The translations under genes were made by a program, and so were the position numbers. A stretch of 64,000 nucleotides of DNA from an uncultured Chlamydiae bacterium (lineage in GTDB: Bacteria; Chlamydiota; Chlamydiia; Chlamydiales; JAJFMA01). The first letter of the stretch is position 1. Each line of letters opens with the position of its first letter. The DNA lies in the NCBI GenBank assembly GCA_963713615.1, contig CAVQMM010000001.1, positions 2,784,001 to 2,848,000 on the forward strand, given 5' to 3'. Shown piece by piece: positions 5,724-45,452 of this stretch. Below the pieces are notes generated by a model. The model ran no database searches, was not told the DNA's origin, and worked only from the letters and a program-made list of their open reading frames with translations.

Positions 5724-6135
5724 CCCTAAGGCGCACCGCTTTCGCGGTGCAGGAACATGTTGTGCGATACCAGGGGTTGCTAGCGCTTCGCGCTTAAGCA
5801 CCCCTGGCTACCTATCGGTAACCACTTCGTGGTTTAGGATGATCATGCGGCTAGGCACAATACACCAGAGGTTATCAGCGCTTCGTGGTTTAGGATAATC
5901 ACACTGTGACATTGTTACCACGAAAGTGGTTACAAATTCGTGGTTTAGGATGATCACACTGTGACATTGTTATCACGAAAGTGGTTACAACTTCGTAATT
6001 TAGGATAATCACACTGTGACATTGTTACCACGAAGTGGTTGCCAGTAGGTAGCCAGGGGTGCTCAAGCGCGAAGCGCTAGCAACCCCTGGTATTGCACGA
6101 AATGTCCCTGCACCGCGAAGCGGTGCGCTTTAGGG
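5724..6135. repeat. REP/REPIN-like element: ~110-bp inverted arms around ~55-bp tandem repeats
   Basis: Arms 5724-5833 and 6027-6135 contain GTAGCCAGGGG..ACCCCTGG hairpins. Units beginning TTCGTGGTTTAGGATRATCA at 5825, 5881, 5936 and 5991. Confidence 0.85.
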
Positions 6136-16240: not shown

Positions 16241-16445
16241 TTAGGAGTGACACGGATGCACACGGATCGAGGAGGATAGGATTTAAATTAGGATTTAGGA
16301 GTAAACCAATTCTAATTCTTCTTCCTAAACCCATGCTTATTGTTTTAGTTTTGAGGAAGTGTTCTTCTATCCTAAATCCTATCCTTCTAAATCCTCCTAG
16401 ATCCGTGTGCATCCGTGTTACTCCTAAATCCTATCCTAAATCCGT
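16241..16445. repeat. Repeat family B inverted pair
   Basis: TTAGGAGTGACACGGATGCACACGGATCGAGGAGGAT at 16241, with its reverse complement at ~16368-16445. Confidence 0.85.
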
Positions 16446-27994: not shown

Positions 27995-30127
27995 GTGGAG
28001 ATGACAATGAAATATGACTGGGAGATCGAGGAAATTCGGGAAATCCATGATAGCCCCTTAATGCCGCTCATTCTACGAGCCAGCGAGGTACATGGTAAGA
28101 ATCATCCAGCGGGAGAGGTTCAGTGTTGTCAAATTTTAAACATCAAATTTGGAGGGTGCACAGAAGATTGTTCTTACTGTGCTCAGGCAGCGCGCTATCA
28201 CACAGGAGTTCAGGCAGAGCCTCTATTAGAAGTTGAGGAGGTGCGTCGCCAAGCGGAAGAATGTAAACGTCAGGGTGTAACCCGCATGTGCTTGAGTGCA
28301 GCATGGCGCGAAGTGCGTAATGGCAAAGCCTTTGATCAGATCCTCGATATGGTTCGTGTTGTCAAAAGTATGGGTTTGGAGGTTTGCTGCACCCTGGGAA
28401 TGCTCAAGGAAGAGCACGTGGAACGCTTAAAGGATGCTGGAGTCTATGCAATCAACCACAATATCGATACTTCGGAAGATTACTACTCCAAAATCATTAC
28501 CACTCGTAAATATTCCGATCGGCTACAAACGATCGCTCGCGTTCAGGCGGCTGGTATCTCCGTATGCTGTGGCGGTATCATTGGCATGGGAGAGACTCTA
28601 GAGGATAGGCTTTCCATGCTTCAAACGCTCTCCTCAATGACTCCACACCCTGACTCGGTTCCTATCAACCTACTATCACCGGTTCCAGGAACACCCCTAG
28701 GGCAACGCGCAAAGACGACGGGTTGGGAACTTCTACGAATGGTGGCGACAGCACGCATTCTGATGCCCAAGTCAATGGTGCGTCTTTCTAGCGGTCGCCT
28801 GGATTTGTCACTGGCTCAGCAAGCTCTCTGCTTTGTCGCAGGAGCGAACTCCATCCATGTGGGGCCTCGTTTATTGCTCACACCTAATCCCAGACATGAT
28901 GTGGATTGGGAGATGTTCCGCACCCTTGGTTTAACTAAACGCAGCGCATACCAGGCGGAAAATATCGCCACGAAAAAGACGGAAGTGGTTGACGTTAACA
29001 CATTCATGAACGAGGAGTTAGAAAAGCGAAAGACGCAAGGGATTCATAGAACCTTAGCCGTTACAGGTGAACTAATCGACTTCACCTCCAACGACTATCT
29101 GGGTCTGGCACGTTCTGACGAGCTTCTCCGAAATATCAACACCGAATTTCATTCGCTTGTCCTCGAAGGAGGCATTCGTCCCTATGTGGGCGCCACCGGC
29201 TCGCGGCTACTGACCGGTAATAGCACCTATGTAGAAGCTTTAGAAAAACATCTAGCGGTTATCCATGGCGCAGAGGCCGGTTTGCTCTTTAACTCCGGAT
29301 ACACGGCTAATCTTGGTCTACTATCCGCAGTCATTGGTAAGGACGATACGATTATTCTCGATACTCAAGTGCATGCCTCAACCTGGGAAGGAGCCAAAGT
29401 CTCAGGGGCGCGTCTTTTACTCTTTAGACATAACAATATGACGCATCTGGAATCTCAACTCAAAAAGGCCCAGGGACGCATTTTCGTGTGCGTGGAGTCA
29501 CTCTATTCCATGGGAGGAGACGTAGCGCCGCTGGATGCATTGTGCGATCTATGTGATCGCTATGGAGCCAATGTGATTGTTGATGAAGCACATGCTATTG
29601 GGGTGTTTGGTCCTAAAGGTCGAGGAGTGGTCAATGCACATAGCCTTGAAAAACGCGTTTTTGCACGCATCCATGCCTTTGGTAAAGCTCTAGGGACACA
29701 TGGAGCCATCGTCTTAGGCAGCAAAACATTGCGCGATTACTTGATCAACTTTTCGCGTCCTCTGATCTATTCCACCGCCTTTCCCCTGCACACTCTGGTG
29801 TCTATCCGCTGCGCCTATGACATGATGCTGTCAGCAGACGACAAACGTCAGCATCTGCAGAAACTCATTGTAGCTCTCAAGACTAAGGGTGTGGCGACCA
29901 CAGACTCTCCCATACAGCCCATCACTATCCATGGAGCTGAGCACGCAAAAAAAATGGCTGCCAGGCTAGCAGAGGTGGGCTATGACGTACGTCCTATCCT
30001 CTCACCAACGGTGCGTAAAGGGTCTGAATGCCTACGTCTCTGCTTGCATGCGTTCAATACAATGGAGGATCTCCATGGTCTTTGCGCTGCCCTATCCCAT
30101 GAAGCTGAGCTTTCGGTGACAGCATGA
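27995..30127 (+). CDS. bioB-bioF: Fused biotin synthase / 8-amino-7-oxononanoate synthase (BioB-BioF)
   Basis: N-half: CTEDCSYC, NHNIDT, VCCGGIIG, SVPIN, VRLSSGR. C-half: DFTSNDYLGL, FNSGYTAN, DEAHAIG, FGKALG. Single 710-aa frame. Confidence 0.92.
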   Translation: MEMTMKYDWEIEEIREIHDSPLMPLILRASEVHGKNHPAGEVQCCQILNIKFGGCTEDCSYCAQAARYHTGVQAEPLLEVEEVRRQAEECKRQGVTRMCLSAAWREVRNGKAFDQILDMVRVVKSMGLEVCCTLGMLKEEHVERLKDAGVYAINHNIDTSEDYYSKIITTRKYSDRLQTIARVQAAGISVCCGGIIGMGETLEDRLSMLQTLSSMTPHPDSVPINLLSPVPGTPLGQRAKTTGWELLRMVATARILMPKSMVRLSSGRLDLSLAQQALCFVAGANSIHVGPRLLLTPNPRHDVDWEMFRTLGLTKRSAYQAENIATKKTEVVDVNTFMNEELEKRKTQGIHRTLAVTGELIDFTSNDYLGLARSDELLRNINTEFHSLVLEGGIRPYVGATGSRLLTGNSTYVEALEKHLAVIHGAEAGLLFNSGYTANLGLLSAVIGKDDTIILDTQVHASTWEGAKVSGARLLLFRHNNMTHLESQLKKAQGRIFVCVESLYSMGGDVAPLDALCDLCDRYGANVIVDEAHAIGVFGPKGRGVVNAHSLEKRVFARIHAFGKALGTHGAIVLGSKTLRDYLINFSRPLIYSTAFPLHTLVSIRCAYDMMLSADDKRQHLQKLIVALKTKGVATTDSPIQPITIHGAEHAKKMAARLAEVGYDVRPILSPTVRKGSECLRLCLHAFNTMEDLHGLCAALSHEAELSVTA

Positions 30128-30753
30128 GTGCGATTATCGTCGCAGGAATTGGCACCGATGTCGGCAAAACGGTGGTCTCGGCAATATTAGTTCAAGCCCT
30201 GGGTTGCGACTACTGGAAGCCTATCCAAACCGGAGGTGCTGATACTGATGTGATTACGAACCTGGTGTCGCGGACCGATCTAACCATTCATCCTGCCTGC
30301 TATACCCTCGAGGCATCTGTCTCACCACACCAAGCGGCTCGCATGGCGGATTGCAAGATAGATGCAACGAAGATTCAACCACCAATAACCAATCGCCCCT
30401 TGCTTATTGAAATGGCTGGGGGAGTCCTCGTCCCCTTTAATGAAGAGAGGCTTCTATTGGACCTGATGACCTCATGGACAGCGCGTTGGATAATCGTCTC
30501 TAAAAACTACCTTGGAAGCATCAACCATACCCTGTTAACAATCGAAGCCCTGCAACGTCGACAGATAGCTCCTTGGGGGATCATCTTCAATGGAGTGGAG
30601 AATCCCGATAGCGAACGCTTTATTCTAAACTATACGGGTCTGCCATGTCTGGGGCGACTCGCTCCTGAGCCAAACATCAACCCTGAAACGATTCGGAGAT
30701 ACGCCACTTTATGGCAGGACAATCTACAGCAACACACCTCCATGACCTCGTAG
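30124..30753 (+). CDS. bioD: Dethiobiotin synthase
   Basis: GIGTDVGKT, WKPIQTG, EMAGG and LGSINHTLL. Confidence 0.96.
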   Translation: MSAIIVAGIGTDVGKTVVSAILVQALGCDYWKPIQTGGADTDVITNLVSRTDLTIHPACYTLEASVSPHQAARMADCKIDATKIQPPITNRPLLIEMAGGVLVPFNEERLLLDLMTSWTARWIIVSKNYLGSINHTLLTIEALQRRQIAPWGIIFNGVENPDSERFILNYTGLPCLGRLAPEPNINPETIRRYATLWQDNLQQHTSMTS

Positions 30754-32021
30754 CCACAGATCTACGGCATATCTGGCACCCGTTTGTTCAAGCGCAGACG
30801 GATGGCAATCCCATCCCTATTGAACGCGGGGAGGGAACGCTTCTTTTCGACATCGAGGGAACGCCTTACATCGATGCGATGAGTTCGTGGTGGGTTAACC
30901 TGCACGGACACGCACATCCTCACATCGCAGGACGCATCGCTGAGCAGGCTCATCGCTTGGAACATGCCCAATTTGCTGATTTGACGCATCAGCCTGCATG
31001 TGAATTAGCTGTAAGACTTTTGAAACACCTCCCTAGCAACCTCACGCGCGTGTTTTATTCCGACAACGGGTCCACGGCCGTCGAAGCCGCTTTGAAGATC
31101 GCCATGCAATATTGGTACAACCTAAACCCTGATAGCCCCCGCACAAAAGTGGTCTCATTTAAGCACGGGTATCATGGCGACACCGTAGGCGCTATGTCCG
31201 TATCCGAGCGAAGCCTCTTTTCCAAGCCTTTTGCACCACTCATGTTCAATACTACCTTTGTCGATCCCCCTGAACCTGGAAACGAACAAACTTCTCTGCT
31301 ACAACTTGCCAAAGCCTTGGAAGCAGATGACGTCGCCTGTTTCATCTATGAGCCTCTGCTGCAAGGCACAGGAGGCTTCCGTAGACACACTGCTGAAGGC
31401 CTTAATGCCCTTCTATCCCTGTGCAAACAAAACAATGTGATCACCATAGCCGATGAGGTTCTCACGGGATTTGGTCGTTTAGGCCCACTCTTTGTAAGTT
31501 CTACGATGGAACAGCAACCAGATATCATTTGCCTTGCCAAGGGAATGGCCGGGGGCTTTCTACCCTTGGCAGCGACGATCTGCAGCGAAAAAATCTATGA
31601 AGCCTTTCTGGCGCCAGAAAGACATAAAGCACTGCTGCATGGGCATACCTACTGCGCCAATCCCTTAGGGTGTGTCGCTGCACTGGCAAGCATGGACCTC
31701 ATCGAAAATCCCCTATGCGAAAAACAACGCGAAGGTATTCATCAGCAACATCTCGCCTTTGTAGAGGTCGCAAAAAACCATCCTAAGCTCCAACGTTGCG
31801 AAGCAATAGGAACCCTGCTTGTGTTGGAATATGCAACAAACGCATCGTATTCTTATTATGGTGAACATCGCAACAAACTAGCGAAATACTTTTTGGATAA
31901 TCGTATTCTTACCAGACCCTTTGGGAATTTGGTCCACATTCTGCCCCCCTACTGCATCACCAAGCAGGAGTTGGCCACAGTTTATGAAGTATTGCTACGC
32001 AGTCTGGAGGAAGTTGTATGA
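30711..32021 (+). CDS. bioA: Adenosylmethionine--8-amino-7-oxononanoate transaminase
   Basis: IWHPF, SSWWVNLHGH, DNGSTAVE, GYHGDT and IADEVLTGFGR. Confidence 0.96.
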   Translation: MAGQSTATHLHDLVATDLRHIWHPFVQAQTDGNPIPIERGEGTLLFDIEGTPYIDAMSSWWVNLHGHAHPHIAGRIAEQAHRLEHAQFADLTHQPACELAVRLLKHLPSNLTRVFYSDNGSTAVEAALKIAMQYWYNLNPDSPRTKVVSFKHGYHGDTVGAMSVSERSLFSKPFAPLMFNTTFVDPPEPGNEQTSLLQLAKALEADDVACFIYEPLLQGTGGFRRHTAEGLNALLSLCKQNNVITIADEVLTGFGRLGPLFVSSTMEQQPDIICLAKGMAGGFLPLAATICSEKIYEAFLAPERHKALLHGHTYCANPLGCVAALASMDLIENPLCEKQREGIHQQHLAFVEVAKNHPKLQRCEAIGTLLVLEYATNASYSYYGEHRNKLAKYFLDNRILTRPFGNLVHILPPYCITKQELATVYEVLLRSLEEVV

Positions 32022-32647
32022 GATCATTATTGAGCAGCATCATCGCAGAGCCCTCACTCCATGCGCGTTGGTTGAACGCGTTATCCTATATGGAAAATGA
32101 AGGGGCCAGGCTGATGGCAGCCTGTGAACATCCGACCCTTGTCAAAGAGCAAATGCTCAAGCATGCTGCTGAAGAATTTCGACACGCTTACTATCTGAAA
32201 AATCAAATTGGTAAGGTGTGGAAGGATGGTCTTAGCGGCTATCGCGTTGATGAGCTCTTTGGAGGGTACCACGCCTTACATTACATGAAAAAGCTAAACG
32301 TGGGAGTCAGCCGACTGCTCAAAAGACATGGCTACCTTGCAGCAGGGTTGCGGGGAGCTGCCTATACCTTGGTATCGTATGCTATCGAGGTGAGAGCTCA
32401 TGACGTCTATCCGGAATATCAAGAGGAGCTGGTGAGACAACGGTCGAGAGTGAGCGTGAGAAATATCATTATCGAAGAAGCTGAACATCTCGAAGAGATG
32501 ACGGCAGCGCTCGCTGAGCTAGACGATGGTGAGGTATTATCCGCTGAGGCCTGTGCAATTGAACGGACCTTGTGGAATAGCTTTTCAGAAGCTGTGCAGC
32601 TAACCCTGGAGAATACCGGGTCGATGACTTTGTTACTGCATTCTTAA
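32018..32647 (+). CDS. Ferritin-like diiron protein, probable BioE-type pimelate-generating oxygenase
   Basis: E (SYMEN), EEFRH, YAIE and EEAEH ligand pattern; ATGA overlap with bioA. Confidence 0.65.
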   Translation: MRSLLSSIIAEPSLHARWLNALSYMENEGARLMAACEHPTLVKEQMLKHAAEEFRHAYYLKNQIGKVWKDGLSGYRVDELFGGYHALHYMKKLNVGVSRLLKRHGYLAAGLRGAAYTLVSYAIEVRAHDVYPEYQEELVRQRSRVSVRNIIIEEAEHLEEMTAALAELDDGEVLSAEACAIERTLWNSFSEAVQLTLENTGSMTLLLHS

Positions 32648-33834: not shown

Positions 33835-34101
33835 TTACTCAACAAGAGCGTCTTTGTCGGTGGTGATCTTCCAGGGATAGGTAGTCTTGGCAGCGCGTTG
33901 CAGCTGTGTCCATGCCCCTCGATCGAAGATGCCATCAGCTCCGCCACTACCGTTCCAGAAGAAACACCACATGGCTATTCCAACGAGTGGCACCACAACA
34001 TAGACAGCCATCAACCATCGTGGCACAGGGGTGTCTAGCTGTGCTGGTGCCCCTTCCGAATCAACGAAATCTTCACTTTCTGAAGTCTTGCGAGGTACCA
34101 T
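33835..34101 (-). CDS. cbb3 oxidase CcoP N-terminal-like membrane peptide, no heme motif
   Basis: AAGGAGG SD before MVPRK. LDTPVPRWLMAVYVV resembles the DNPLPRWW helix of CcoP/FixP. No CxxCH. Confidence 0.7.
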   Translation of the reverse strand: MVPRKTSESEDFVDSEGAPAQLDTPVPRWLMAVYVVVPLVGIAMWCFFWNGSGGADGIFDRGAWTQLQRAAKTTYPWKITTDKDALVE

Positions 34102-34297
34102 GGCTACCCTCCTTCTCGGGTTGTTCATCACTCATTTGCATCATGCGCTGTGCGGGTTCATCATCCATATCGAGTCGATCTTTACTCCAGAGATAGAGAA
34201 AGAGCATCAAAGCGCTGCCCACGAAAAAGATAACGATTGCATGATGCATCACGTTGCCATAGATACCTATGGAGTCAAAAATCCGCGCAGCTAACAT
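34073..34297 (-). CDS. Small single-TM cbb3-associated protein (CcoS/CcoQ-like)
   Basis: TM followed by LWSKDRLDMDDEPAQRMM, reminiscent of the CcoS tail; sits between ccoO and the CcoP stub. Confidence 0.55.
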   Translation of the reverse strand: MLAARIFDSIGIYGNVMHHAIVIFFVGSALMLFLYLWSKDRLDMDDEPAQRMMQMSDEQPEKEGSHGTSQDFRK

Positions 34298-34298
34298 T

Positions 34299-35567
34299 TT
34301 ATGGTTCTACCTTTTTTATTCCCTCAATGATCTCAGTAGTATTCAAGGGATCAAGCCCCAACCACCACGCTTGCGTTGGGGGCGTGATACGGGTACCTTT
34401 GGTCATCAAATACTGGAAAACAGCTTCAAAGCGATAGTTTGGTATTCCTACCGAACTCGAGGCCTGCCCTCTTGGATCATCATCAAAGAAATGGCGGAAT
34501 GAGGGCATAATGCTACCGGGACTAGGTGTGCGTGGTTGCCAAAAGTGACCTTTATGCCAATCGCGGCTAGGGCGTTTAACTCCCACTCGCGCTAGGTCAG
34601 GTCCGATGCGCCGCGTTCCAGGAAAGGTAATCTTCTGATAGATGTACTCATTGCCCGATGAGGGTGGCGCTGCAAAGGCTGCACTGCCATTCAACACACT
34701 GTCTTGGATCAGCGTACGACTTTGGTCAGTATGACAGTACCAGCAGCCTTCAATAGCAAAAATATGTTCACCCATAGCGATGAGTTCCTTGCGCGATATG
34801 AAGCCTAGATCTTTGCCCGTGAGCTGCGCTAGGTCCTTGACATATTCGCCATTAGGATCATACCGGTAACCCATGGTATGACCGATGCCAAAGCGCCTGA
34901 AACGATAGGCCTCGGGATTCAGTACATAGGTCACACCGGGGTCCTTATGATAGTCCTGGGTAGGTCCATCGATAATTTTGAAATGTTTATCTACATAGTC
35001 TTCGGTGGTCCCGTCGGTCTGCGAATGCGCAAAGGCTTCCTTCCTTCCCGGATCATATAATTCCATGATCGAGCGATCGACACGCGCCAGACCGCGCTCC
35101 TTCCAGTCAGGATGTTGCTGTTCCCATTCTTTCTGAAGACTGGTGCGCAACTTGTCGGCCTCATCAACAGCATCTCCTATGGGCTTGCGCAGAAGAAGAA
35201 TGTGCGATGTAAGTCTGAGCTCTTTGTCTCCAAAGCGAGTGACAAAGCGTTCAAGGTTTTGTGGTGCCAGAATGCGCATCTGCTCCGTTTCGCGAAAGGC
35301 CATTAGCGTAAAGCCATCCTTCAGATGGTGTACATAGTCTAGACCAGGAGCCCCAGGTACCGCTCTAGCCGCGTAGAAATTGGGGTCGGCGACTTCATAC
35401 ATCTGTACTTGAAAATGGCTGGAAGGCTGTACCCAGCTTGGATCTACCAGGTTAGGGGCTAAAACCGTCGCAAGGATAGAGGTCAGGAACAGCAGAAAGA
35501 TCCCTATGATGGTAAGAACCGCTGACTTCTCAATTCGACTAGTATGGGGCTTGTTTGATTCTGTCAT
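34299..35567 (-). CDS. ccoO: cbb3-type oxidase subunit II, enlarged (422 aa)
   Basis: N-terminal TM, EGCWYCHT, GTRRIGPDL and GSIMP, with a large insertion before the heme domain. Confidence 0.85.
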   Translation of the reverse strand: MTESNKPHTSRIEKSAVLTIIGIFLLFLTSILATVLAPNLVDPSWVQPSSHFQVQMYEVADPNFYAARAVPGAPGLDYVHHLKDGFTLMAFRETEQMRILAPQNLERFVTRFGDKELRLTSHILLLRKPIGDAVDEADKLRTSLQKEWEQQHPDWKERGLARVDRSIMELYDPGRKEAFAHSQTDGTTEDYVDKHFKIIDGPTQDYHKDPGVTYVLNPEAYRFRRFGIGHTMGYRYDPNGEYVKDLAQLTGKDLGFISRKELIAMGEHIFAIEGCWYCHTDQSRTLIQDSVLNGSAAFAAPPSSGNEYIYQKITFPGTRRIGPDLARVGVKRPSRDWHKGHFWQPRTPSPGSIMPSFRHFFDDDPRGQASSSVGIPNYRFEAVFQYLMTKGTRITPPTQAWWLGLDPLNTTEIIEGIKKVEP

Positions 35568-35569
35568 GG

Positions 35570-37039
35570 TTATGCCTGAGCCTCAGCTATAACGCGTTCA
35601 ATTTTTTGAGGTCTCGTTTGTGGCTTCAGCAATATCGTGTTAAAGACATTCACAAGAAAGATGCTATTGGCAGAAAAAATGATAATTCCTGCGATGGTAC
35701 GCGTAAGCCACCAATAGTGCATGCTTGCTATGGTATCTAAAAACTGTAGCTTGCTGAGATTGCTTTGGAAGACGCGATAGCTATCACCATCTGCCCATGT
35801 AGACCACTGAAGCCCCTGCAAGAAACCTCCAACATGCAGCGCAATAAACATGAGAGAGGCTCCCAGCATATTCAGAGTAAAATGCCAATCGGCCATACGC
35901 TTCGAGTAGAGAGGCTTGCCCGTTAGCGCAGGCAAAGCCCCATAGACGCCTGCCATGGCGAAAAATGTAAAGGTTCCATACAGCGACATATGGGCGTGTC
36001 CGATGATCCAATCCGTTTTCGACGTTATTTCATTGACGTTACGTACCGCCATGAAAGAGCCTTGCGTGCTGACCATCAAATAAAACAACACACCCATAAT
36101 AATAAAACGGACGGCGGCAATCTCGTTGTACTTATGCCAACGGCCCTTGAGCGTGTAGAAAAGGTTGTATACTACGGTCCAGACAGGAATGAATAACCAG
36201 ATAGAGAAAATGATGGCGACAGTTTGAATCCATTGAGACATAGGGCCATGGATGATGTGGTGAGAACCCACCCAAGCGTAAACGAAGGCAATGGACCAAA
36301 AGCCCACCATGGAGAGTTTGTGGCTATAGATTGGTGCGTTGGCCATCTTGGGCAGGAAATAATAGGCAATGGCCAGGCCCATCGGTGTAAAGACCAGTCC
36401 TACCAGGTTATGGACGTAGTAAAAGCTCATGTTGACTCTGGAGATTCCCTCAGGAATCCAGTTGATCGCAAAGTTACCCGCGAAATAGGAGATGCCTCCC
36501 CACAACAGTGTGGCCATGATATACCACAGCGACACATACATTTTTTCATATTTGCGATTGGCGATAGTCATGTAGATATTGACCGAGACCAATGTCCAGG
36601 CGACCAAACCAATGAATTTGATCGGCAAATAGGATAACCAGGTGGGAAACTCGGCATACTCCCATCCAAAGTTCGTTCCCCAAGGAAACGAGTAGGTGCC
36701 CGGAACAAAAGCCAGCCAATAGAGGGCTGCAGACCACATACCAAGTTTACGGCTCCAAAGGGGAACACCGCAGAGGCGCTGTGTAATGTAGTAGAGAAGC
36801 CCAAAGTTGGCAGGCAATAGCCAAAGTAACAGGACATGCCCAACATGAACGGGCCGAACTTTTCCGAAGTGAATATACTCACCGGCCCAATAGTCGGGCA
36901 TCACCATTCCATTAAAGGAAATAAACACTCCGAAAAACATCCCAATGACCATAAAAACAATGGCGGGATAGAGGAAGAGTTTTACCGGCAGATCCTCAAA
37001 CTGAGGTTGGGCGGGCTGAGCTTGTGCGACACTTTCCAT
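35570..37039 (-). CDS. ccoN: cbb3-type (C-family) heme-copper oxidase subunit I
   Basis: RPVH, EYAE, YVHNLVG, YAWVGSHH (helix VII Tyr) and WIIGHAH; about 12 TMs. Confidence 0.92.
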   Translation of the reverse strand: MESVAQAQPAQPQFEDLPVKLFLYPAIVFMVIGMFFGVFISFNGMVMPDYWAGEYIHFGKVRPVHVGHVLLLWLLPANFGLLYYITQRLCGVPLWSRKLGMWSAALYWLAFVPGTYSFPWGTNFGWEYAEFPTWLSYLPIKFIGLVAWTLVSVNIYMTIANRKYEKMYVSLWYIMATLLWGGISYFAGNFAINWIPEGISRVNMSFYYVHNLVGLVFTPMGLAIAYYFLPKMANAPIYSHKLSMVGFWSIAFVYAWVGSHHIIHGPMSQWIQTVAIIFSIWLFIPVWTVVYNLFYTLKGRWHKYNEIAAVRFIIMGVLFYLMVSTQGSFMAVRNVNEITSKTDWIIGHAHMSLYGTFTFFAMAGVYGALPALTGKPLYSKRMADWHFTLNMLGASLMFIALHVGGFLQGLQWSTWADGDSYRVFQSNLSKLQFLDTIASMHYWWLTRTIAGIIIFSANSIFLVNVFNTILLKPQTRPQKIERVIAEAQA

Positions 37040-37062
37040 ATAATGTTTACAACCAACTAATG

Positions 37063-40000
37063 CTATGTGTGGGACTTTAACGGTTTAGCAGCCTCTATGA
37101 ATTCATTGACCTGCTCAACAAGCTTCGTCTGGTTCTGACGAGACCGAGCGGCATCCTCAAGCGTTGTCATGAGCAATATTTCTAGTTGCTGAAAACTCTT
37201 TAGCCGCTGCTCTAGCTCGGTAAGATGCTCTCGACCTGCGGCAGAGGGAATTTGCCCTTCGAGCAGCTTCTTTTCTTTCTGAATAGCCGCTATTTGCTGA
37301 TTAATGAGAACGATGACATTTTTGCCACCAGCTACAATCTTTTGAGCATCGGGAGAGTAAGGATCCAAACTCAACTTACCATCGTTGTAGTCATAGTGAG
37401 TGGCGTTGAGTCCGACTAAATCAACGATTTGATCGGAAATATCACCCTGTCCAGCATTCGTCAATGCTGAGGTACCGAGGATATTGTAGATATCCTTAGA
37501 CTGTTTAATTTCCTCGATCAGCTTCTGGAAGACATCATCAATGGCTTGTTGCTTCTTAACTTGCTCAGCAAGCGAGAGCTCATTTTGGTAGGCTTTGACA
37601 AGTGCCGGCACAGCTGTCTGATCTAATGCCAGCTTAGCTTCCTGATCTTCTTTGAAGCTATGTGCCGCTTGATAGGCGTCTTGCAGTTTTTGTAATATTC
37701 CATATTGAACAATCTGTTGCTGCCTGACAGTATCAACGGCTCTATCGAACGAATGATATAAGACCTCAGCTAAGTGCTCTCTCAGGGCATGCTCCTCACT
37801 TAGACTGCGGATGTACATGACCAGCTGCAAACGCTGTAGGGAGTTAGTAAAGTCTCCCCAAGGAATCATGGCTGTGCCAGGCACGCCATATTTGATCGAC
37901 TGGATCAGCCGTAAATCATCGCGCGTGTTAATCCAATCGAGGTTTGTTAGCATACGTGGTTTGGATTCAGTCATCGTACCGGCGCGAAGACCATTACCAG
38001 CGCCCTCTTTACCGTGGCAGATGGCACAGTTTTCAATAAATGACTTCTCTCCTGCCGCCAGATTTTCTGGTGTATAGTACTTTTGCTTGATGTAGTACGC
38101 CTTACGATCCACGCCAGATACGGGATAGGGTTTGATGTCAAACACATCCGATACATGTTGGGCATTGGGATCAGGCGTCGTCATTGGCTTGAGAGCTGCT
38201 AAAAACTTAGCAGCGCCTTCGGCATCATAAAGCGCGGAACCTCTCAGAACATCGCCCTCTTGATGTAATTCACGTAGCACATCTTCAGGTTGATAATGCC
38301 ACTTGAGAGGCTGTGTTTGACTGTTATCTTCTTCTGGGATGCCTATGAATAACCAGTCAGCTAGACGTTTAATCTCCTGAGACGTAAAAACCGGCGTTGT
38401 GTTCCCATGGATTTTGTCTTTGGCCAGCTCGCCCCAAGGAGGCATGGGTGTCCCCTTCACTCCATGTGTGATGGACTCTATGACGCGTTCTTTTGTAAGG
38501 TTTTGCAAAAAGTTGGCGTTGCGTAGATTTTTTGGAATGGGATAGAGCCACTGCGCTACAGGTCCATCACCCTGACGGTAGTCGCCGTGACATTGTGCAC
38601 AATTAATATGGTAGGCCACTTCGGGGTTGAAGCCGCGATTGTCCCACAACTCTCGTTCCACCGCCGCATTGCGAGGTGCTAGAGTATCTAACATGTAGGT
38701 CAAGGTATAGAATTTCGTCTCATCAAACGGAAAGACGGGCATGATGGAACGAGCGACATGTGTCACAGGGTTATAGAAGTGTTCCATAAGCCACTCGTCG
38801 GAACGATAAATGCCCGACCAATTGGGTCTAGGGCCTACAAGGCGTCCCAGACCATACTCTTGAATATACATCTTCAATACGCGTTCTACACGCTCTTTCC
38901 ACTGATTCAGCTGTGCCAGGGCTGCCGCTTTTTCTTGGGCAGAAGCCGCCTTAGCAGCTGCTTGCTGATAGTATGCATTTTTGGCGCGTGAGGCAAACTT
39001 GAAATCGGAATACAGGGCCTCGATAATACCCGGATGCTTTTCCTCAATTTCCTCAATAATCGATCCCTGACGCACACCATCGGCGATTCTATGATCGATC
39101 TCGTCAGCATGATCGTCTATAGCCTGAACGATTTGTGATCCAAGAGCTTCTTCTGGAAAAAGACCGCTAAACCATTCATGTTGCTTATACATCTCGGCAA
39201 AAGTCGGTTCATGGCCTTTTTCGATGGCAAAGCCCACATTGGATTCGAATCCCTTAAGACGATGGCATGCGGAACACCCCTGAGTGGCGAATATCGTCAT
39301 CCCAAAGCGCAAATCGTGAATTTTTGCCGCAGGAACGGGCAATTCAAAAGACTGCTTCTTCTTGCCCTCTTCCCATTGTTTTACAATGACATCGTAGTCA
39401 ACCTGCGAGATAGCATGCGGCCGCCCTCTCTGTCCTAGTAGAAAGCAGGTAATAGCTTCGAGCTCTTCGTGATCAAGTTTATAGTTTGGCATGGTAGAAG
39501 TTGGTAGATCGGCCTGAGGCCATACGACGGACTCCTTGACAAACCAAGGATATTTGAAGCCTTCAGCGGTTAGTTCAGGGCCCACTCCCCCTCTCGCCAG
39601 GCCAGCAATGCGGTGGCAGGCATAGCATGCCTGAGAAATGTAAAGCTGCTCGCCACGTTCATAGCATTGGATCATGCGATCAACATCGCCAGTGACAGCT
39701 TGCTTGACCTGATCCTGCGCAAGAGAGATCGAAAGACCACTTTCGGCCTTTCCAATATGATGTAAGAAAATTTGTTGTCTTTCTGCCGCCGCGGCCTTAG
39801 CAAATAGGTGGCCTTGTGTGTCCTTGTGTGCCTCTACAAATTTGTCAATGGTCGCATCAGCTGCCGTGGGTTGTGCCCAAACACTCTTATCCAGTTCGTC
39901 GGCAATTTTTTGCGTACCCAGCGATGCCAATATCTGTCCCTCGATGTACTTTAGGGCAGCTGTCTGGCGGGCTAAGTTATCCACTGCGGGAATATTCCCC

Positions 40001-41115
40001 ACGGCGACACGCAAAAATGCTGCCTGTGCTGCAGCCTCTCCACGCTCTGTTTGTGGCAAGCTATATTCCGTTTCTCGTGCTGTAACAGCCTTCAACGTGG
40101 CGTCATAACCCTGGGAATTAATAGCTTTGCGAAGGGTCAACAAGGTGATCAGAGCTTTCTTTTCAGTGTTGTAAGCCTTCTGAACGTCCTGCGCCTGCTG
40201 GGCAGTCTGGTTCTTTAGGTTAGTGACAGTGCTGATGGCCCCTTGGAGCTGCGACGATGACGACAGGTGACACTGCACGCAATTGGCTTGAATTAGTTCT
40301 CCAGGAAATATCGGAGTTGTCTGAAAAAGCAGTTTATGCCCCGGTTTATGGTTAAATATTTTTGAGAAGATAGGATCATTGTCAGGATCAACTTCAAGAA
40401 ACTGCGGTTCAGGCCCTTCAAATGACTCTGGGTATTGCCCATCAAACACGGGTCCATGAGCCTTTTCAATGGTTAAGGCGCGACCATTTCCGCTGTGGCA
40501 TACAGTACAGCCATATTCTTCCACGGGGTGAAACTCGAAGGGACGTGATTCCTTTCCGATCAAAGGATGCATCGCTATGGCTTTGGTCATATCGACTTGG
40601 CGGTCTCCCACCCAAGCCGATTTTAAAGCCTTCAGCTTGTCAGCTTCGGCTATTCGCTCTTTAACCTGGGCCTCATCGCTATGCTCTTTTAAAGCCTCCA
40701 GAGCTTTCTCGTCGGATAGGGCAGCAACCCTGTCATCAAGCAGCTGCCAGACATAATTTTCGTTGGCCACCTTAACGGGGTAGCCTTCTTTGTCCAGAAC
40801 GACTTGTCCATTGACATCCGTGGCGATTTTTGTGGGCGAAAAATGCGCTAGCTGGAGTGCAACATGACAGCTTGTGCAGCGGTCTACGATCTCAGGACCA
40901 TTGTGCTCCTGAGGTAAGACTATCTGCCTGATACCTATATCAAACGGTGCCGGATTTTCATGGGTTATCGTGGATCGAAATTCCTCTAAGGCGATATATG
41001 TCTGCTGAAATTGCTTGTATTGGGGATAAACTTCGCGCGACAAGAAGATGCCAAAGAGGATCGTGGTGACCACGAGTAAGAAGATCAGGCTCAGTTGATA
41101 GAGTTCAGATCGCAC
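37063..41115 (-). CDS. Membrane-anchored heptaheme c-type cytochrome (1350 aa)
   Basis: N-terminal TM; CTSCH, CTVCH, CVQCH, CYACH, CSACH, CAQCH and CAICH; long helical inserts. Confidence 0.9.
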   Translation of the reverse strand: MRSELYQLSLIFLLVVTTILFGIFLSREVYPQYKQFQQTYIALEEFRSTITHENPAPFDIGIRQIVLPQEHNGPEIVDRCTSCHVALQLAHFSPTKIATDVNGQVVLDKEGYPVKVANENYVWQLLDDRVAALSDEKALEALKEHSDEAQVKERIAEADKLKALKSAWVGDRQVDMTKAIAMHPLIGKESRPFEFHPVEEYGCTVCHSGNGRALTIEKAHGPVFDGQYPESFEGPEPQFLEVDPDNDPIFSKIFNHKPGHKLLFQTTPIFPGELIQANCVQCHLSSSSQLQGAISTVTNLKNQTAQQAQDVQKAYNTEKKALITLLTLRKAINSQGYDATLKAVTARETEYSLPQTERGEAAAQAAFLRVAVGNIPAVDNLARQTAALKYIEGQILASLGTQKIADELDKSVWAQPTAADATIDKFVEAHKDTQGHLFAKAAAAERQQIFLHHIGKAESGLSISLAQDQVKQAVTGDVDRMIQCYERGEQLYISQACYACHRIAGLARGGVGPELTAEGFKYPWFVKESVVWPQADLPTSTMPNYKLDHEELEAITCFLLGQRGRPHAISQVDYDVIVKQWEEGKKKQSFELPVPAAKIHDLRFGMTIFATQGCSACHRLKGFESNVGFAIEKGHEPTFAEMYKQHEWFSGLFPEEALGSQIVQAIDDHADEIDHRIADGVRQGSIIEEIEEKHPGIIEALYSDFKFASRAKNAYYQQAAAKAASAQEKAAALAQLNQWKERVERVLKMYIQEYGLGRLVGPRPNWSGIYRSDEWLMEHFYNPVTHVARSIMPVFPFDETKFYTLTYMLDTLAPRNAAVERELWDNRGFNPEVAYHINCAQCHGDYRQGDGPVAQWLYPIPKNLRNANFLQNLTKERVIESITHGVKGTPMPPWGELAKDKIHGNTTPVFTSQEIKRLADWLFIGIPEEDNSQTQPLKWHYQPEDVLRELHQEGDVLRGSALYDAEGAAKFLAALKPMTTPDPNAQHVSDVFDIKPYPVSGVDRKAYYIKQKYYTPENLAAGEKSFIENCAICHGKEGAGNGLRAGTMTESKPRMLTNLDWINTRDDLRLIQSIKYGVPGTAMIPWGDFTNSLQRLQLVMYIRSLSEEHALREHLAEVLYHSFDRAVDTVRQQQIVQYGILQKLQDAYQAAHSFKEDQEAKLALDQTAVPALVKAYQNELSLAEQVKKQQAIDDVFQKLIEEIKQSKDIYNILGTSALTNAGQGDISDQIVDLVGLNATHYDYNDGKLSLDPYSPDAQKIVAGGKNVIVLINQQIAAIQKEKKLLEGQIPSAAGREHLTELEQRLKSFQQLEILLMTTLEDAARSRQNQTKLVEQVNEFIEAAKPLKSHT

Positions 41116-41132
41116 TAGTTATGCCCTCTCGC

Positions 41133-42458
41133 TCAATGTCGGGAAAAGGTTTCGGTCCATGGCCAGATCCAGCCCCAATTAGCCCCTCGAAAAAATGTTC
41201 CTATCACAATCAGAATTGCCTGGCTCGTCATGAACAATGTCCACAGAAAAATCGCCAAATAACGGCTGCGATGGAACCAGTATCCGGTACCATAAGGATT
41301 ACGATCGAGGTATGGCACAGCCATCAAGCCCACGACGATCAGACCTGGAATACCTACTCCTCCCCAGAAAGCGCTGTAGGAAACCATTTCCTGCAAACCC
41401 AAAAAGTACCAAGGAGCCTTGGAGGGATTCGGTGGTGCTGTAGCGTTCGCTGGTTCCTCTAACGGAGCATCGATAAATGAAAGTCCCAGAGTCAACACCA
41501 ATGTAAAGAGAAAGGCAACTGTCTCAGCTCGCAAAAGATTCGGCCAGGTAAAGATGAAGTTATAGGGCCCCTTGTCAACGGTTGGACACGTCCCACGCAC
41601 TAGCTCCATCAGTCCATAGGTGCGCTTGACCCCTGGAGCGAATGTCTCCTTGGTGTCGGATCGTTGCACCACACGAAGAGGGTCTGGTCGAATCTTATCG
41701 GGTGGACGCGATAGTCCCCCATCCTTGCGGATGCGCCAAAAATGCACGCCAATGAGAGTACCGGCGATCAGGGGCAACACGACGACGTGAAGAACATAAA
41801 AGCGGATCAAAGCGTCTTGTCCTACGCTTGTAGAAGCCAGCAGCATGACGCGGTTAACGTTGTACTGAAAACCAGGCAGATTAGGGGCATAGCCAGCAAT
41901 CTCCGTTCCTACGGTAATAGCCCAGAAGGCCAGTTGGTCCCACGGTAAAAGGTAACCTGTAAAAGACAATACCAAGGTGAGCACGAGCAACGTGACGCCG
42001 ATGACCCAATTGAACCGTCGTTCTCCTTTATAGGAGCCCGTATAAAAGACCCGGGACATGTGAAGCATGACGAACATCACCATCAGGTGAGCGCTCCAAC
42101 GATGCATGTTGCGGTACATCTGTGCAAAAGGGGTGGTGTCCTGCCAATCCTTCATGATGTCGTAGGCACGGTCAACCGTAGGGATGTAGAAAAACATCAA
42201 GACGACACCCGTCCAGGTCAGAATTAAGAACAAACTCGTAGAGATAGCACCCAGCCCTAACGTATAGAAGGGGTCGACACTGTTCTTATGGCACTTCACA
42301 GGGTGAAAGTGCAGGAAAAAATTCTTAAAGACGATTTCGGACCGATCGACATCATTGTTGGGATAGTTATGCCGAAAAATTGAACGCAAAAAGGTTCTAG
42401 GAAGATTGGCTAAGTATTCAGCCCAGGATTCACGTGGTGTGCCCTTAAAGACAGCCAT
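41133..42458 (-). CDS. petB: Cytochrome b of a Rieske/cytb complex (b6-like plus subunit IV-like in one chain)
   Basis: RNMHRWSAH..LHMSRVF, FTGYLLPWDQ, RFYVLH-x14-H and the Qo motif variant KAPWYF. Confidence 0.92.
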   Translation of the reverse strand: MAVFKGTPRESWAEYLANLPRTFLRSIFRHNYPNNDVDRSEIVFKNFFLHFHPVKCHKNSVDPFYTLGLGAISTSLFLILTWTGVVLMFFYIPTVDRAYDIMKDWQDTTPFAQMYRNMHRWSAHLMVMFVMLHMSRVFYTGSYKGERRFNWVIGVTLLVLTLVLSFTGYLLPWDQLAFWAITVGTEIAGYAPNLPGFQYNVNRVMLLASTSVGQDALIRFYVLHVVVLPLIAGTLIGVHFWRIRKDGGLSRPPDKIRPDPLRVVQRSDTKETFAPGVKRTYGLMELVRGTCPTVDKGPYNFIFTWPNLLRAETVAFLFTLVLTLGLSFIDAPLEEPANATAPPNPSKAPWYFLGLQEMVSYSAFWGGVGIPGLIVVGLMAVPYLDRNPYGTGYWFHRSRYLAIFLWTLFMTSQAILIVIGTFFRGANWGWIWPWTETFSRH

Positions 42459-42488
42459 AGTTAAAAAGTTACTCCCATCGCATTGTGG

Positions 42489-42998
42489 TTAGACCATCGG
42501 CGCAAACCACGCTTCGATGTCATTTAATGTTGTTTGTGACTTATCACACATAATTTCGCCCGAAGCTCCCAGAAAGCACTTAAAGTAAACTAAAGGGCGC
42601 GGAGCCGGGCCTCCAGTGTTATGCCCTAATAGGTCATAGGTAGAACCGTGGCAGGGACATTGATAGCCTGTCTCTACCATATGTACCGTGCATCCTAAAT
42701 GTGTACATACCGCCGTTTGAACACGCACTTTGCCATTTTCCGAATCTACAAAGACCTTCTGCTTGGGCACAAAAACTTTTCCTTGGTGAGCGAGAACTTC
42801 ATCTGGCCGTCCCAAAGAAAAAATGCTCGGAGGAATCTTCATCGCATTAGGCCAGAGAAAACCCAGCATTGAGGCACCCATCAGATTCAGGGCTCCGAAG
42901 CCTACCCCAACGCCTAATAGAGCTAAAAAAGAGCGCCGAGAAATGCGAGGATCCCTGTCATCTGCATCAACATTTAAAGAGTTCCGTAGCTTAGGCAT
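42489..42998 (-). CDS. petC: Rieske [2Fe-2S] subunit
   Basis: SRRSFL twin-arginine anchor; CTHLGC and CPCHGSTY; GPAPRPL. Confidence 0.93.
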   Translation of the reverse strand: MPKLRNSLNVDADDRDPRISRRSFLALLGVGVGFGALNLMGASMLGFLWPNAMKIPPSIFSLGRPDEVLAHQGKVFVPKQKVFVDSENGKVRVQTAVCTHLGCTVHMVETGYQCPCHGSTYDLLGHNTGGPAPRPLVYFKCFLGASGEIMCDKSQTTLNDIEAWFAPMV

Positions 42999-43066
42999 GT
43001 AAAAATCCGTTTTTTATAAATGATATATGCGTAAAGCTCTTTCTTGACAATACACTCGTAGAGCCT

Positions 43067-43476
43067 AGGATTCGGATTAACACGGATTTAGGATGGGATT
43101 AGGAGTAACACGGATGCACACGGATCTAGGAGGATTTAGGATGGGATTAGGAGTAACACGGATGCACACGGATCTAGGAGGATTTAGGAGGATAGGATTA
43201 GGATTTAGGATAGGACTAATGGTGGATTTTAAAGAAGTAAAAATGGGGTCTAGGAAAACTCCTAAACAATTTTTTACTCTTAATTCTATCCTCCTAAATC
43301 CTCCTAGATCCGTGTGCATCCGTGTTACTCCTAATCCTATCCTCCTAGATCCGTGTGCATCCGTGTTACTCCTAATCCTATCCTCCTAGATCCGTGTGCA
43401 TCCGTGTTACTCCTAATCCCATCCTAAATCCTCCTAGATCCGTGTGCATCCGTGTTACTCCTAGTCCCATCCTAAT
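43067..43476. repeat. Repeat family B expanded inverted cluster (2+ forward, 4 reverse units)
   Basis: GGAGTAACACGGATGCACACGGATCTAGGAGGAT units at 43067-43212, inverted at 43286-43476. Confidence 0.9.
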
Positions 43477-43618
43477 CGTCCTTATCCTCGCTCTCATCGC
43501 GGAACATCTGGTATTTGACATCTTCCACATCATCAAACTGCCCTTTGTACCAATAGTAGAGGAAGATCAGGAGGGCCGATAGACCTGCAGCTAAACTCAG
43601 CACCAGGTCTACAAACAT
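43472..43618 (-). CDS. ccoS: cbb3-type oxidase assembly protein CcoS (48 aa, absent from ORF track)
   Basis: MFVDLVLSLAAGLSALLIFLYYWYKGQFDDVEDVKYQMFRDESEDKDD*: TM plus GQFDD motif. ATG lies 1 nt after the oxidoreductase stop. Confidence 0.85.
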   Translation of the reverse strand: MFVDLVLSLAAGLSALLIFLYYWYKGQFDDVEDVKYQMFRDESEDKDD

Positions 43619-43619
43619 C

Positions 43620-45452
43620 TCAACCTATCCACCTAAAGCTATAGTTCATCGCATCCATCGTTACTGCTTGGGTTGGGCACTTTTCAGCACACAATCCACA
43701 GCGAATGCACAAGTCCTCATCTTTCATCATGATGGTACCCATGAGGGCTAGGTCATGCTCCGACATTTCCACTGAATCCACTCCGTAGAAGTTATCCACA
43801 GCACGGCGCACATTGCCCTCTCCAGCATCCAAGTTTACTTTGCTGACAGGCACCTGCATTAAGCAATTGGTAGGGCATACATCAACACATCCATTACATT
43901 TGATGCAGAGCGTCCCATCGAAAACCGGAGAGACATGACACTGCAAACAGCGGTTGGCCTGCTGATGCACAGCTTCGTCGGTATAGTTGTTCTCAACATA
44001 CTCCAGGTTCTTAACACGACTGTGCGCCGGCTGCGAGGTAGGCAATGCCCACTTGGTCCTCAGATATCCCTTGTCACGCATAGGAATAATTTCTGTAAAT
44101 TCAGCCACGAACTCACGATAGGGTTTTGTGCCACGTAGATCGCTGTCTATCGTCCTGGCAGTTTCTTGACCATGCCTGATAGCCGTGATAAACAACGCCG
44201 GACCGAATCCCACATCGCCGCCCGAATAGACTCTTGGAACACTCGTACGCCCAGTGCCTCTCTCTGTTTTGATGAGACCTCGGTCAATCACTAGCTGGTC
44301 ACGCTTATCCCAGCCGTCGAGGAAGGCGGTATCCATTGCCTGACCAATGGCCAGCGCTACCGTGTCACAAGGAATCACATACTGGCTGTCTGGAACATAC
44401 TTAGGGGCAAAACGTCCCTGAGAATCAAACAGGCTGTAGATAGGCTGTACCTTAAGCCCAATCACTCTGCCCTGTTCATCGCGCTCAACAGAAATTGGCC
44501 CGACACGGTTGATCAGCTCCACACCTTCTTCATGCCCATCTTCGATTTCGAATTCATCAGCTGTTTGTTCATCGCGGGATTCCAAGCAGACCATGGTGAT
44601 CTTTTCCGCACCATTTCGTACTGAGGAGCGCGCCACATCAAAAGCCACGTTGCCCCCACCAACAACGACGATGCGCTTACCAATAGCCCAGCGCTCATCA
44701 GCGCATAACACTCGCAAATACTCAACACCACGAATAATATCGGGACCATCAGCTCCCGGGATGGGCAGCTCGCGAGATTTCCATAGGCCAATGCCTATGA
44801 AAATGGCATCATATTTTTCCTGAAGCTGGTTCATTGTGATGTCGCGACCAATCTTAGTATTGTAGTACACCTGAGCACCCAGATGTTCGATCGCACGACA
44901 TTCAGTAATGGCTAATTTATTCTTTAGACGATAGGTGGGCACGCCATGGGTCAACATACCGCCAGGCATAGACATCATCTCAAAGACATCCACAGCATAG
45001 CCCAAGCGTAGCAAGTCGTGAGCTGTTGTCAGTGAGGCTACTCCAGCACCAATACAAGCAACTTTCAGTCCATTTGGTGTAGGCTTGGTAGAACCGCGGG
45101 CAAAGCTAAACTCCAAGGATCGATTGAGGGCCGCCTGATCTTCTCCAAACCATTCATCAAGATAACGCTTTTGAGCACGAATGGTGAGCGTCTTATCCAC
45201 ACGATCACGACGACAGGCTATTTCGCAGGGAGCTCCACAGATCATGCCACAGATCGATGCAAAAGGATTCGGACCACGGGCTATTTTGTAGCCTTCTAGA
45301 AGATTGCCCGCATGAATCGCCAGCATATAGCCACGTCCATCCGTATTCACTGGACAACCATCACGGCAGTCAATCTGACGCAAGTAGTAATCGACATCTG
45401 GAATGGTAACGTCGTACAGTTGGCGGTAGGCGTCGTCAAGCTCTTCGGTCAC
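43620..45452 (-). CDS. FAD/NAD(P)H-dependent Fe-S oxidoreductase (GltD/NfnB/DsrL-like) with C-terminal 2x[4Fe-4S] ferredoxin
   Basis: CRDGCP, CGMICGAPCEIAC, IGAGVAS, GGGNVAFDVAR, RCLQC, CIKCNGCVDVCP and CIRCGLCAEKCP; AAGGAG SD before the GTG start. Confidence 0.88.
   Translation of the reverse strand: MTEELDDAYRQLYDVTIPDVDYYLRQIDCRDGCPVNTDGRGYMLAIHAGNLLEGYKIARGPNPFASICGMICGAPCEIACRRDRVDKTLTIRAQKRYLDEWFGEDQAALNRSLEFSFARGSTKPTPNGLKVACIGAGVASLTTAHDLLRLGYAVDVFEMMSMPGGMLTHGVPTYRLKNKLAITECRAIEHLGAQVYYNTKIGRDITMNQLQEKYDAIFIGIGLWKSRELPIPGADGPDIIRGVEYLRVLCADERWAIGKRIVVVGGGNVAFDVARSSVRNGAEKITMVCLESRDEQTADEFEIEDGHEEGVELINRVGPISVERDEQGRVIGLKVQPIYSLFDSQGRFAPKYVPDSQYVIPCDTVALAIGQAMDTAFLDGWDKRDQLVIDRGLIKTERGTGRTSVPRVYSGGDVGFGPALFITAIRHGQETARTIDSDLRGTKPYREFVAEFTEIIPMRDKGYLRTKWALPTSQPAHSRVKNLEYVENNYTDEAVHQQANRCLQCHVSPVFDGTLCIKCNGCVDVCPTNCLMQVPVSKVNLDAGEGNVRRAVDNFYGVDSVEMSEHDLALMGTIMMKDEDLCIRCGLCAEKCPTQAVTMDAMNYSFRWIG

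Follow-up and report, generated by a model that had tools for sequence, protein, structure and literature searches.

A conserved chlamydial operon joining a flavo-Fe-S oxidoreductase, a Rieske/cytochrome b pair, a seven-haem cytochrome and a cbb3-type oxidase

In anammox bacteria, the Rieske/cytochrome b complexes linked to NAD(P) have no settled role; electron bifurcation to NAD(P)+ has been proposed for them but not demonstrated. For the cytochromes b of subfamily G, gene neighbourhoods have been mapped on a tree with linked oxidoreductases noted, and four chlamydial sequences carrying the GLGx and P-WY motifs were placed in that subfamily (PMC5600118, the latter in its Fig. S1; this and the other PMC-numbered sources are cited for the accessible parts of their text). 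PetBD and CcoO/N, that is complex III and CcoNO, have been reported in environmental chlamydiae (PMC9816063). We examined a stretch of 64,000 nt from an uncultured Chlamydiae bacterium (contig CAVQMM010000001.1 of assembly GCA_963713615.1, forward-strand positions 2,784,001-2,848,000), hereafter the window, within which all positions below are numbered, and found in it an operon that joins such a Rieske/cytochrome b pair to a cbb3 oxidase and to a flavoprotein predicted to use NAD(H). The reading of this operon that we prefer, at a probability of about 0.45, is a bifurcation of menaquinol electrons in which one goes to O2 and one to NAD+.

The operon and its occurrence

The window carries nine intact respiratory open reading frames (ORFs), all on the minus strand and spanning 33835..45452, and family scans gave back seven of the nine gene names. 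An initial annotation had described nine co-oriented, mostly tightly packed genes, which was borne out: the intergenic distances, in operon order from the flavoprotein on, are 1, 473, 30, 17, 23, 2, 1 and -59 bp, so that seven of the eight junctions measure 30 bp or less and only the one between ccoS and the Rieske gene, at 473 bp, is wide. The features are as follows, with lengths in amino acids (aa).

43620..45452, minus strand: flavo-Fe-S oxidoreductase (the flavoprotein), 610 aa, DsrL/NfnB/GltD-like (PF07992, PF14691 and Fer4)
43472..43618, minus strand: ccoS (FixS), cbb3 assembly peptide, 48 aa (PF03597, E 3.8e-6; conserved position)
42999..43471, no strand assigned: REP-like inverted-repeat element with a long hairpin in the ccoS/Rieske gap, a genome-wide repeat
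42489..42998, minus strand: Rieske protein, 169 aa (PF00355)
41133..42458, minus strand: cytochrome b, 441 aa, with a b6-like part and subunit IV fused (PF00033; ExtP-like and ExtQ-like halves in a single chain)
37063..41115, minus strand: membrane-anchored seven-haem cytochrome c, 1350 aa (seven CxxCH)
35570..37039, minus strand: CcoN, 489 aa (PF00115)
34299..35567, minus strand: CcoO, 422 aa (PF02433)
34073..34297, minus strand: conserved single-helix membrane peptide, 74 aa, weakly CcoS-like (one of 22 members matches FixS)
33835..34131, minus strand: conserved haem-less protein, 98 aa, homologous to the membrane segment at the N-terminus of CcoP (FixP_N in 15 of 36 aligned members)

We surveyed 301 sampled genomes of the phylum, which are related to one another and mostly metagenome-assembled, and the counts are accordingly descriptive. 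Rows were counted after score and length filters that removed fragments, and chlamydial counts that include loci L065-L077 may contain up to 13 duplicates. Cytochrome b gave 68 matches, 66 at 74% identity or more and two distant. The flavoprotein was present in 64 genomes, all of them within the 66 cytochrome b carriers, and the remaining two carriers have contig ends at its place. We found ccoN in 71 genomes, namely the 66 cytochrome b carriers plus five. When 60 cytochrome b loci were fetched, the full gene order (with the 74-aa ORF unscored) was seen in 51 of the 59 orthologous chlamydial loci; the operon is not peculiar to this genome. Truncation at a contig end or a broken assembly accounts for six of the eight exceptions; in another (L150) the cbb3 genes lie about 5 kb further along, and in the eighth unrelated genes lie upstream of cytochrome b while the flavoprotein is on another contig.

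None of the five genomes with ccoN only gave a flavoprotein or cytochrome b match. Three of them retain ccoS-ccoN-ccoO with both small genes, one additionally has the seven-haem gene, and one shows ccoN alone. One of the five is a single contig (G055; L146:4166-8429) on which ccoN-ccoO and the small genes are intact and remnants of 38 aa and 77 aa are left of the flavoprotein and the Rieske protein, respectively; this locus is a deletion caught mid-way. Of 300 genomes scored for TatC, 61 have it; every one of these belongs to the 66 cytochrome b carriers and none to the five, and in some genomes tatC is roughly 10 kb or less from the operon (for instance L150:15076-15801). The CcsA family occurs in 83 genomes, including 70 of the 71 ccoN carriers. 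Since the flavoprotein and Tat occur only with cytochrome b and are absent from the ccoN-only genomes, they track the Rieske/cytochrome b half of the operon and not the cbb3 half.

Outside the phylum, loci were picked by cytochrome b similarity alone, and the best 80 of 590 confirmed matches were kept, 67 of them non-chlamydial. Among these 67 the flavoprotein gene has the orientation of cytochrome b in 61, the other six stopping at a contig edge, and flavoprotein and ccoN occur together in 15, mostly from Acidobacteria and Kiritimatiellaceae/Pontiella. The synteny survey thus found the oxidoreductase linked in other chlamydial and non-chlamydial genomes, contrary to the possibility, raised in the initial annotation, that it would be unlinked elsewhere. 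The flavoprotein gene stands last in Acidobacteria and first in Kiritimatiellaceae/Pontiella, and the seven-haem cytochrome of the cbb3-linked non-chlamydial loci has about 600 aa and is once split in two. FastTree trees of cytochrome b and flavoprotein, built from 67 paired rows out of 108 available pairs, gave equal main clades, with r = 0.94 across 43 non-chlamydial rows, and L089 and L110, two clusters on one contig, sit in matching separate clades in both trees. The cytochrome b tree held no reference members of other subfamilies. Chlamydiae form a single group on a long branch in both trees; the deep branching differs between the two, and no donor of the chlamydial operon can be named. 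One genome (G199, L056:196-4491) has a second, distant flavoprotein-Rieske-cytochrome b cluster of 37-47% identity, which groups with non-chlamydial long cytochromes b and may be a transfer or bin contamination.

These data bear on whether the flavoprotein matters to the complex at all. A canonical Q-cycle complex III could feed cbb3, with a flavoprotein that is inherited along with it but loosely associated and that serves regulation, assembly or redox poising. Every canonical ligand is present in cytochrome b, the flavoprotein gene moves from first to last place in Acidobacteria, and at least one chlamydial genome (G162) has it apart from the cytochrome b gene, all of which would fit such an arrangement. 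Against it, the flavoprotein never occurs without cytochrome b in the 301 genomes and is lost together with it, extra His/Arg residues are invariant on both proteins, and the anammox subunits co-migrate (cited in PMC12954380). We consider the loose partnership quite unlikely and the flavoprotein very probably a functional partner of cytochrome b.

A recent foreign insertion of the operon was ruled out, since its GC content (0.46-0.50) matches the genome and orthologues at the 74-93% level occur in many families. The closest named relatives of cytochrome b among the matches listed are chlamydial (Chlamydiae, Parachlamydiaceae, Waddliaceae and Chlamydiales, at 74-87% identity), besides one 'uncultured bacterium'. 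The inverted-repeat element between ccoS and the Rieske gene is an insertion outside the conserved operon; the gap is 203 bp or less in 56 relatives, and the repeat is missing from all fetched loci. Genome-wide, one strand has 70 copies of its core and the other 73, grouped into about 68 clusters; a second copy of the element lies in the window at 16250-16420. Two ORFs that we take to be of the GxxExxY type occur in the genome, one of them within a repeat cluster.

The operon is real, conserved and under-described. Our literature search, outside whose reach subscription journals largely fell, found no description of the joined flavoprotein-Rieske/b-heptahaem-cbb3 operon. Ten Brink 2013 and Kartal 2013 may describe such clusters. 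The joined operon may already be drawn in PMC5600118. The initial claim of an undescribed system can thus be kept for the joined operon, for which no description was found, and has to be given up for its parts (PMC9816063; PMC5600118 Fig. S1).

Subunits and their ligands

The flavoprotein consists of an N-terminal Fe-S domain, FAD and NAD domains, a linker and a C-terminal 2[4Fe-4S] ferredoxin, with zero transmembrane helices predicted. Sixteen cluster-type Cys positions are kept, bar a few gaps or substitutions outside chlamydiae, Arg584 is present in 123 of 123 rows, and the flavin-side Arg175 is retained. A CxxCH at residue 502 was discarded as a haem site, His506 not being retained outside chlamydiae. 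Glu291 was found in 121 of 123 rows, including all 66 chlamydial ones, at the place where solved homologues carry YRR, a mark of NADP use in DsrL (PMC7596348). Because Glu291 replaces YRR, the flavoprotein is predicted to be of the NAD(H) type rather than the NADP(H) type. The NADP-binding YRR motif of the bifurcating NfnAB is likewise missing from the flavoprotein, which has Leu-Glu291 in its place, and no NfnA-like gene was seen in the operon. Two Chloroflexota relatives (L129 and L137) combine a split cytochrome b with a YRR-type flavoprotein, and hence NAD-using and NADP-using members likely coexist in the family.

These residues also bear on what the module reduces. It could reduce ferredoxin or NADP+, or else a divergent CcoN could chiefly scavenge oxygen or nitric oxide instead of respiring; we regard either case as very improbable. 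The NfnB-like fold with its Arg175 and the YRR of the two Chloroflexota relatives speak for ferredoxin or NADP+, and the Glu291 of 66/66 chlamydial rows speaks against it. As no POR was found in the 99% complete genome, ferredoxin chemistry has little support. The coupling to NAD(P)+ or ferredoxin chemistry that had been proposed at the outset is accordingly narrowed to the NAD(H)-type signature, the missing YRR speaking against NADP(H) and the missing POR leaving little support for ferredoxin.

The Rieske protein has a twin-arginine anchor, both cluster boxes and, at Ser119/Tyr121, the high-potential signature defined in PMC4122944; Ser/Tyr was found in 70 of 70 chlamydial rows and the twin Arg in 68 of 70. 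In cytochrome b, the haem ligands His119, His133, His224 and His239 are present in 140 of 140 rows, and K-A-P-W in every row that includes subunit IV, the Qo motif here being APWY. Gly68 replaces the haem c_n Cys in 72 of 72 chlamydial rows. Glu312 is kept in all 72, and it lies with His/Asn307 near the likely N-side quinone pocket. His50, Arg244 and Lys245 occur in 140 of 140 rows, and the His-Arg spacing is 190-204, a range that reaches the 204 expected from the residue numbers given for Kuenenia (PMC12954380). His50 and the Arg residues are thus likely candidates for the extra haem site predicted for anammox complexes, the mapping being by motif and spacing rather than by alignment to the Kuenenia chains. 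The top PDB matches of cytochrome b are b6 chains whose alignments begin after His50. A complex prediction with the cytochrome b dimer (residues 12-436) and the C-terminal part of the flavoprotein (468-610) reached 0.29, the mark being 0.32.

With these residues in view, the opposite direction of electron flow has to be weighed. The flavoprotein could oxidise NADH and feed haem bN and the N-side quinone site. The Q-cycle would then be assisted by NADH, and the operon would form a single chain from NADH to oxygen. Heterotrophs produce NADH in excess, and this surplus would suit such a chain, as would the NAD(H)-type signature of the flavoprotein and the retention of Glu312 near the likely quinone site with the haem c_n Cys missing. 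DsrL enzymes, moreover, operate in both directions (PMC7596348). On the other hand, PMC12954380 argues that such input would waste energy in an organism with NADH dehydrogenases; this genome has both complex I and NQR, which by that argument would conserve the energy better. NADH input would also leave the high-potential signature of the Rieske protein, paired with menaquinone, unexplained. We therefore consider NADH input unlikely.

The large cytochrome has CxxCH motifs at residues 80, 203, 279, 497, 614, 839 and 1030. Seven motifs were counted in 69 of 73 chlamydial ORFs, the rest being a six-motif protein, a split gene (6+1) and a contig fragment. Three extra His and four Met are invariant in 71 of 71 rows, and the protein likely holds three bis-His haems (His183/196/220) and four His/Met haems (Met542/792/891/1083). 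Long helical inserts in the chlamydial protein are missing from the 600-aa non-chlamydial forms. They are seen in the model of residues 1-1128, which had a pLDDT (predicted local distance difference test) of 80.7 and which in a fold search matched only single haem-domain proteins, best of all 6h5l_B. The last two haem domains are closer to this Kuenenia protein than to CcoP, and a transfer of the CcoP haems into the large cytochrome, which we considered, was not established.

CcoN keeps the six metal-binding His, including all CuB ligands, and the active-site Tyr254 in 80 of 80 rows. Its Gln326 and Gly246, which align with Glu323 and His243 of 3mk7_A, are fixed in the same 80 rows. The roles of these two residues in the Pseudomonas enzyme we take to be those of haem b3 ligand partner and proton channel; nothing usable on the Glu323-to-Gln change was found in the literature. 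The two substitutions are what would favour oxygen or nitric oxide scavenging over respiration, against which stand the complete CuB ligands and the Tyr. CcoO has one haem (Cys275-His279, Met354) and a chlamydial insert of about 180 aa (residues 61-240; 34848-35387) that folds as a confident beta-rich domain. The insert had no usable match in the structure atlas, and the CcoO model, whose haem domain was modelled poorly, had no PDB match at E 0.001.

No gene for a dihaem CcoP was found in the operon, only the anchor segment, and CcoP is dispensable for the CcoNO core (PMC8407424). With four CcoP chains at the top of its six weak PDB matches (E 0.0065-0.37) and FixP_N in 15 of 36 members, the 98-aa ORF is by its sequence a homologue of the CcoP N-terminal anchor, as the initial annotation had it in calling this ORF a CcoP stub. 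Its description of the 74-aa ORF as CcoS/Q-like holds for CcoS, weakly (one of 22 members matches FixS), and fails for CcoQ, to which no match was found.

A proposed route for electrons

In the bifurcation that we prefer, Tat would export the Rieske protein and CcsA would attach the c haems. Menaquinol would be oxidised at the APWY site of the Rieske/cytochrome b complex, probably one of subfamily G. The high-potential branch would run from the Rieske protein through the three bis-His haems and the four His/Met haems to CcoO, CcoN and O2; with this haem chain built in, neither a soluble cytochrome c nor a haem-bearing CcoP would be needed, and the CcoP anchor helix would survive as a small subunit. 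The low-potential branch would run from haem bP to haem bN and on, perhaps through an extra dimer-axis haem held by His50, to the four Fe-S clusters, FAD and NAD+. Complex I or Na+-NQR, for both of which the genome has genes, would re-oxidise the NADH, and the large gap from menaquinol to oxygen would, we infer, allow more ion pumping than a plain Q-cycle. A high-potential Rieske protein together with menaquinone has been argued to permit NAD(P)+ reduction (PMC12954380). Following that reasoning, the high-potential signature with menaquinone, the candidate extra-haem residues and the presence of both complex I and NQR tip the direction slightly toward NAD+ reduction, given a functional partnership.

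The support genes were found elsewhere in the 99% complete genome, which encodes a CcsA-family protein with a WWD motif, TatC and TatA, so that the absence of cytochrome c maturation and Tat that the initial annotation had asked about can be set aside. Two menaquinone-pathway genes (PF02621), complex I genes and an NQR/Rnf-family subunit are present, as are cytochrome bd and a second haem-copper oxidase subunit I, presumably of bo3. Because support genes lie elsewhere and two further terminal oxidases are encoded, the operon is one of three terminal branches and not fully self-contained, as had been supposed. The only other c-type cytochrome found via PF00034 is a membrane-anchored dihaem protein of 294 aa (G000:C1:84887-85771), which we take to resemble thiosulfate dehydrogenase. 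An OmcB-family match in the genome scores under the family cut-off.

Several points weigh against the bifurcation. Making NADH uphill would meet no evident need in a heterotrophic symbiont. With Glu312 and His/Asn307 kept and the haem c_n Cys gone, quinone reduction may proceed as usual, and the extra dimer-axis haem in Kuenenia is itself an AlphaFold prediction (PMC12954380). The congruence of the cytochrome b and flavoprotein trees may reflect shared descent, and the genomes, being related, are not independent samples. The affinity and pumping of CcoN may differ from those of the Pseudomonas enzyme, judging by Gln for Glu323 and Gly for His243, and at nanomolar O2 an acidobacterial CcoNO, possibly of another operon type, showed little or no expression (PMC8407424). 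Lastly, a III-IV supercomplex is not obligatory, because five genomes keep cbb3 after the complex III half is gone and the two halves lie about 5 kb apart in L150. Of the III-IV supercomplex first proposed, the genetic linkage of Rieske/cytochrome b, cbb3 and an anammox-like oxidoreductase stands, while a physical supercomplex with a microaerobic role is a prediction. A wider reading, in which NAD+ reduction would replace the return leg of the Q-cycle in a widespread aerobic machine with a fifth, dimer-axis b haem, NADH would be recycled via complex I/Na+-NQR, and chlamydial Tat would be kept essentially for one complex, is more tentative still, and we offer it as somewhat doubtful.

Elsewhere in the window, a biotin cluster at 27995-32647 has BioB and BioF fused in a 710-aa ORF, followed by bioD, bioA and a 209-aa ORF. 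The latter had no family match and presumably resembles a ferritin-like di-iron biotin-precursor enzyme. Short tandem arrays lie at 5882-6040 (55-bp unit, x2.9) and 54462-54540 (21-bp unit, x3.8).

Comparison with known systems

Chlamydiae, Acidobacteria and Kiritimatiellae-type genomes combine the core known from anammox bacteria with an oxygen reductase, which makes the high-potential acceptor identifiable and the scheme assayable with oxygen. The operon also shows what lies behind the 'PetBD plus CcoNO' entries in print for environmental chlamydiae and suggests why Tat is retained in some members of the phylum.

The domain order Fd-FAD/NAD-linker-Fd is common to DsrL and our flavoprotein, and the NAD(H)-using DsrL-1 is also without YRR (PMC7596348). 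The partner of DsrL, however, is DsrAB whereas that of the flavoprotein would be cytochrome b, and, unlike in DsrL, two of its cluster Cys derive from the linker motif at 502/505. The subfamily G or APWY complexes share the APWY motif and the linked oxidoreductase (PMC5600118; PMC4122944); chlamydiae are not mentioned, nor is a cbb3 link discussed, in the accessible main text of either paper.

The Kustd1480-1485 and Kuste4569-4574 complexes of Kuenenia stuttgartiensis (PMC12954380) are alike in having a b6-like cytochrome b with subunit IV, a multihaem c subunit, an NAD(P) oxidoreductase with four Fe-S clusters and a high-potential Rieske signature; the candidate His/Arg residues for the predicted extra haem likely correspond as well. 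They differ in that b6 and subunit IV are split and carry a CxGG haem c_n site, whereas the chlamydial protein is a single 441-aa chain with Gly68. Unlike its counterpart in Kuenenia, the chlamydial c subunit carries seven haems along with long inserts, and its electrons would go to a cbb3 encoded in the same operon of an aerobic heterotroph. The proteobacterial cbb3 (CcoNOQP, 3mk7) shares the CcoN metal ligands, the CcoO haem, CcoS and the CcoP anchor segment, but the operon described here differs from it and from bc1-cbb3 in the large CcoO insert, the Gln/Gly substitutions and the lack of a haem-bearing CcoP gene. In the bc1-cbb3 supercomplex the partner of the oxidase is bc1, whereas the partner here is probably a subfamily-G complex.

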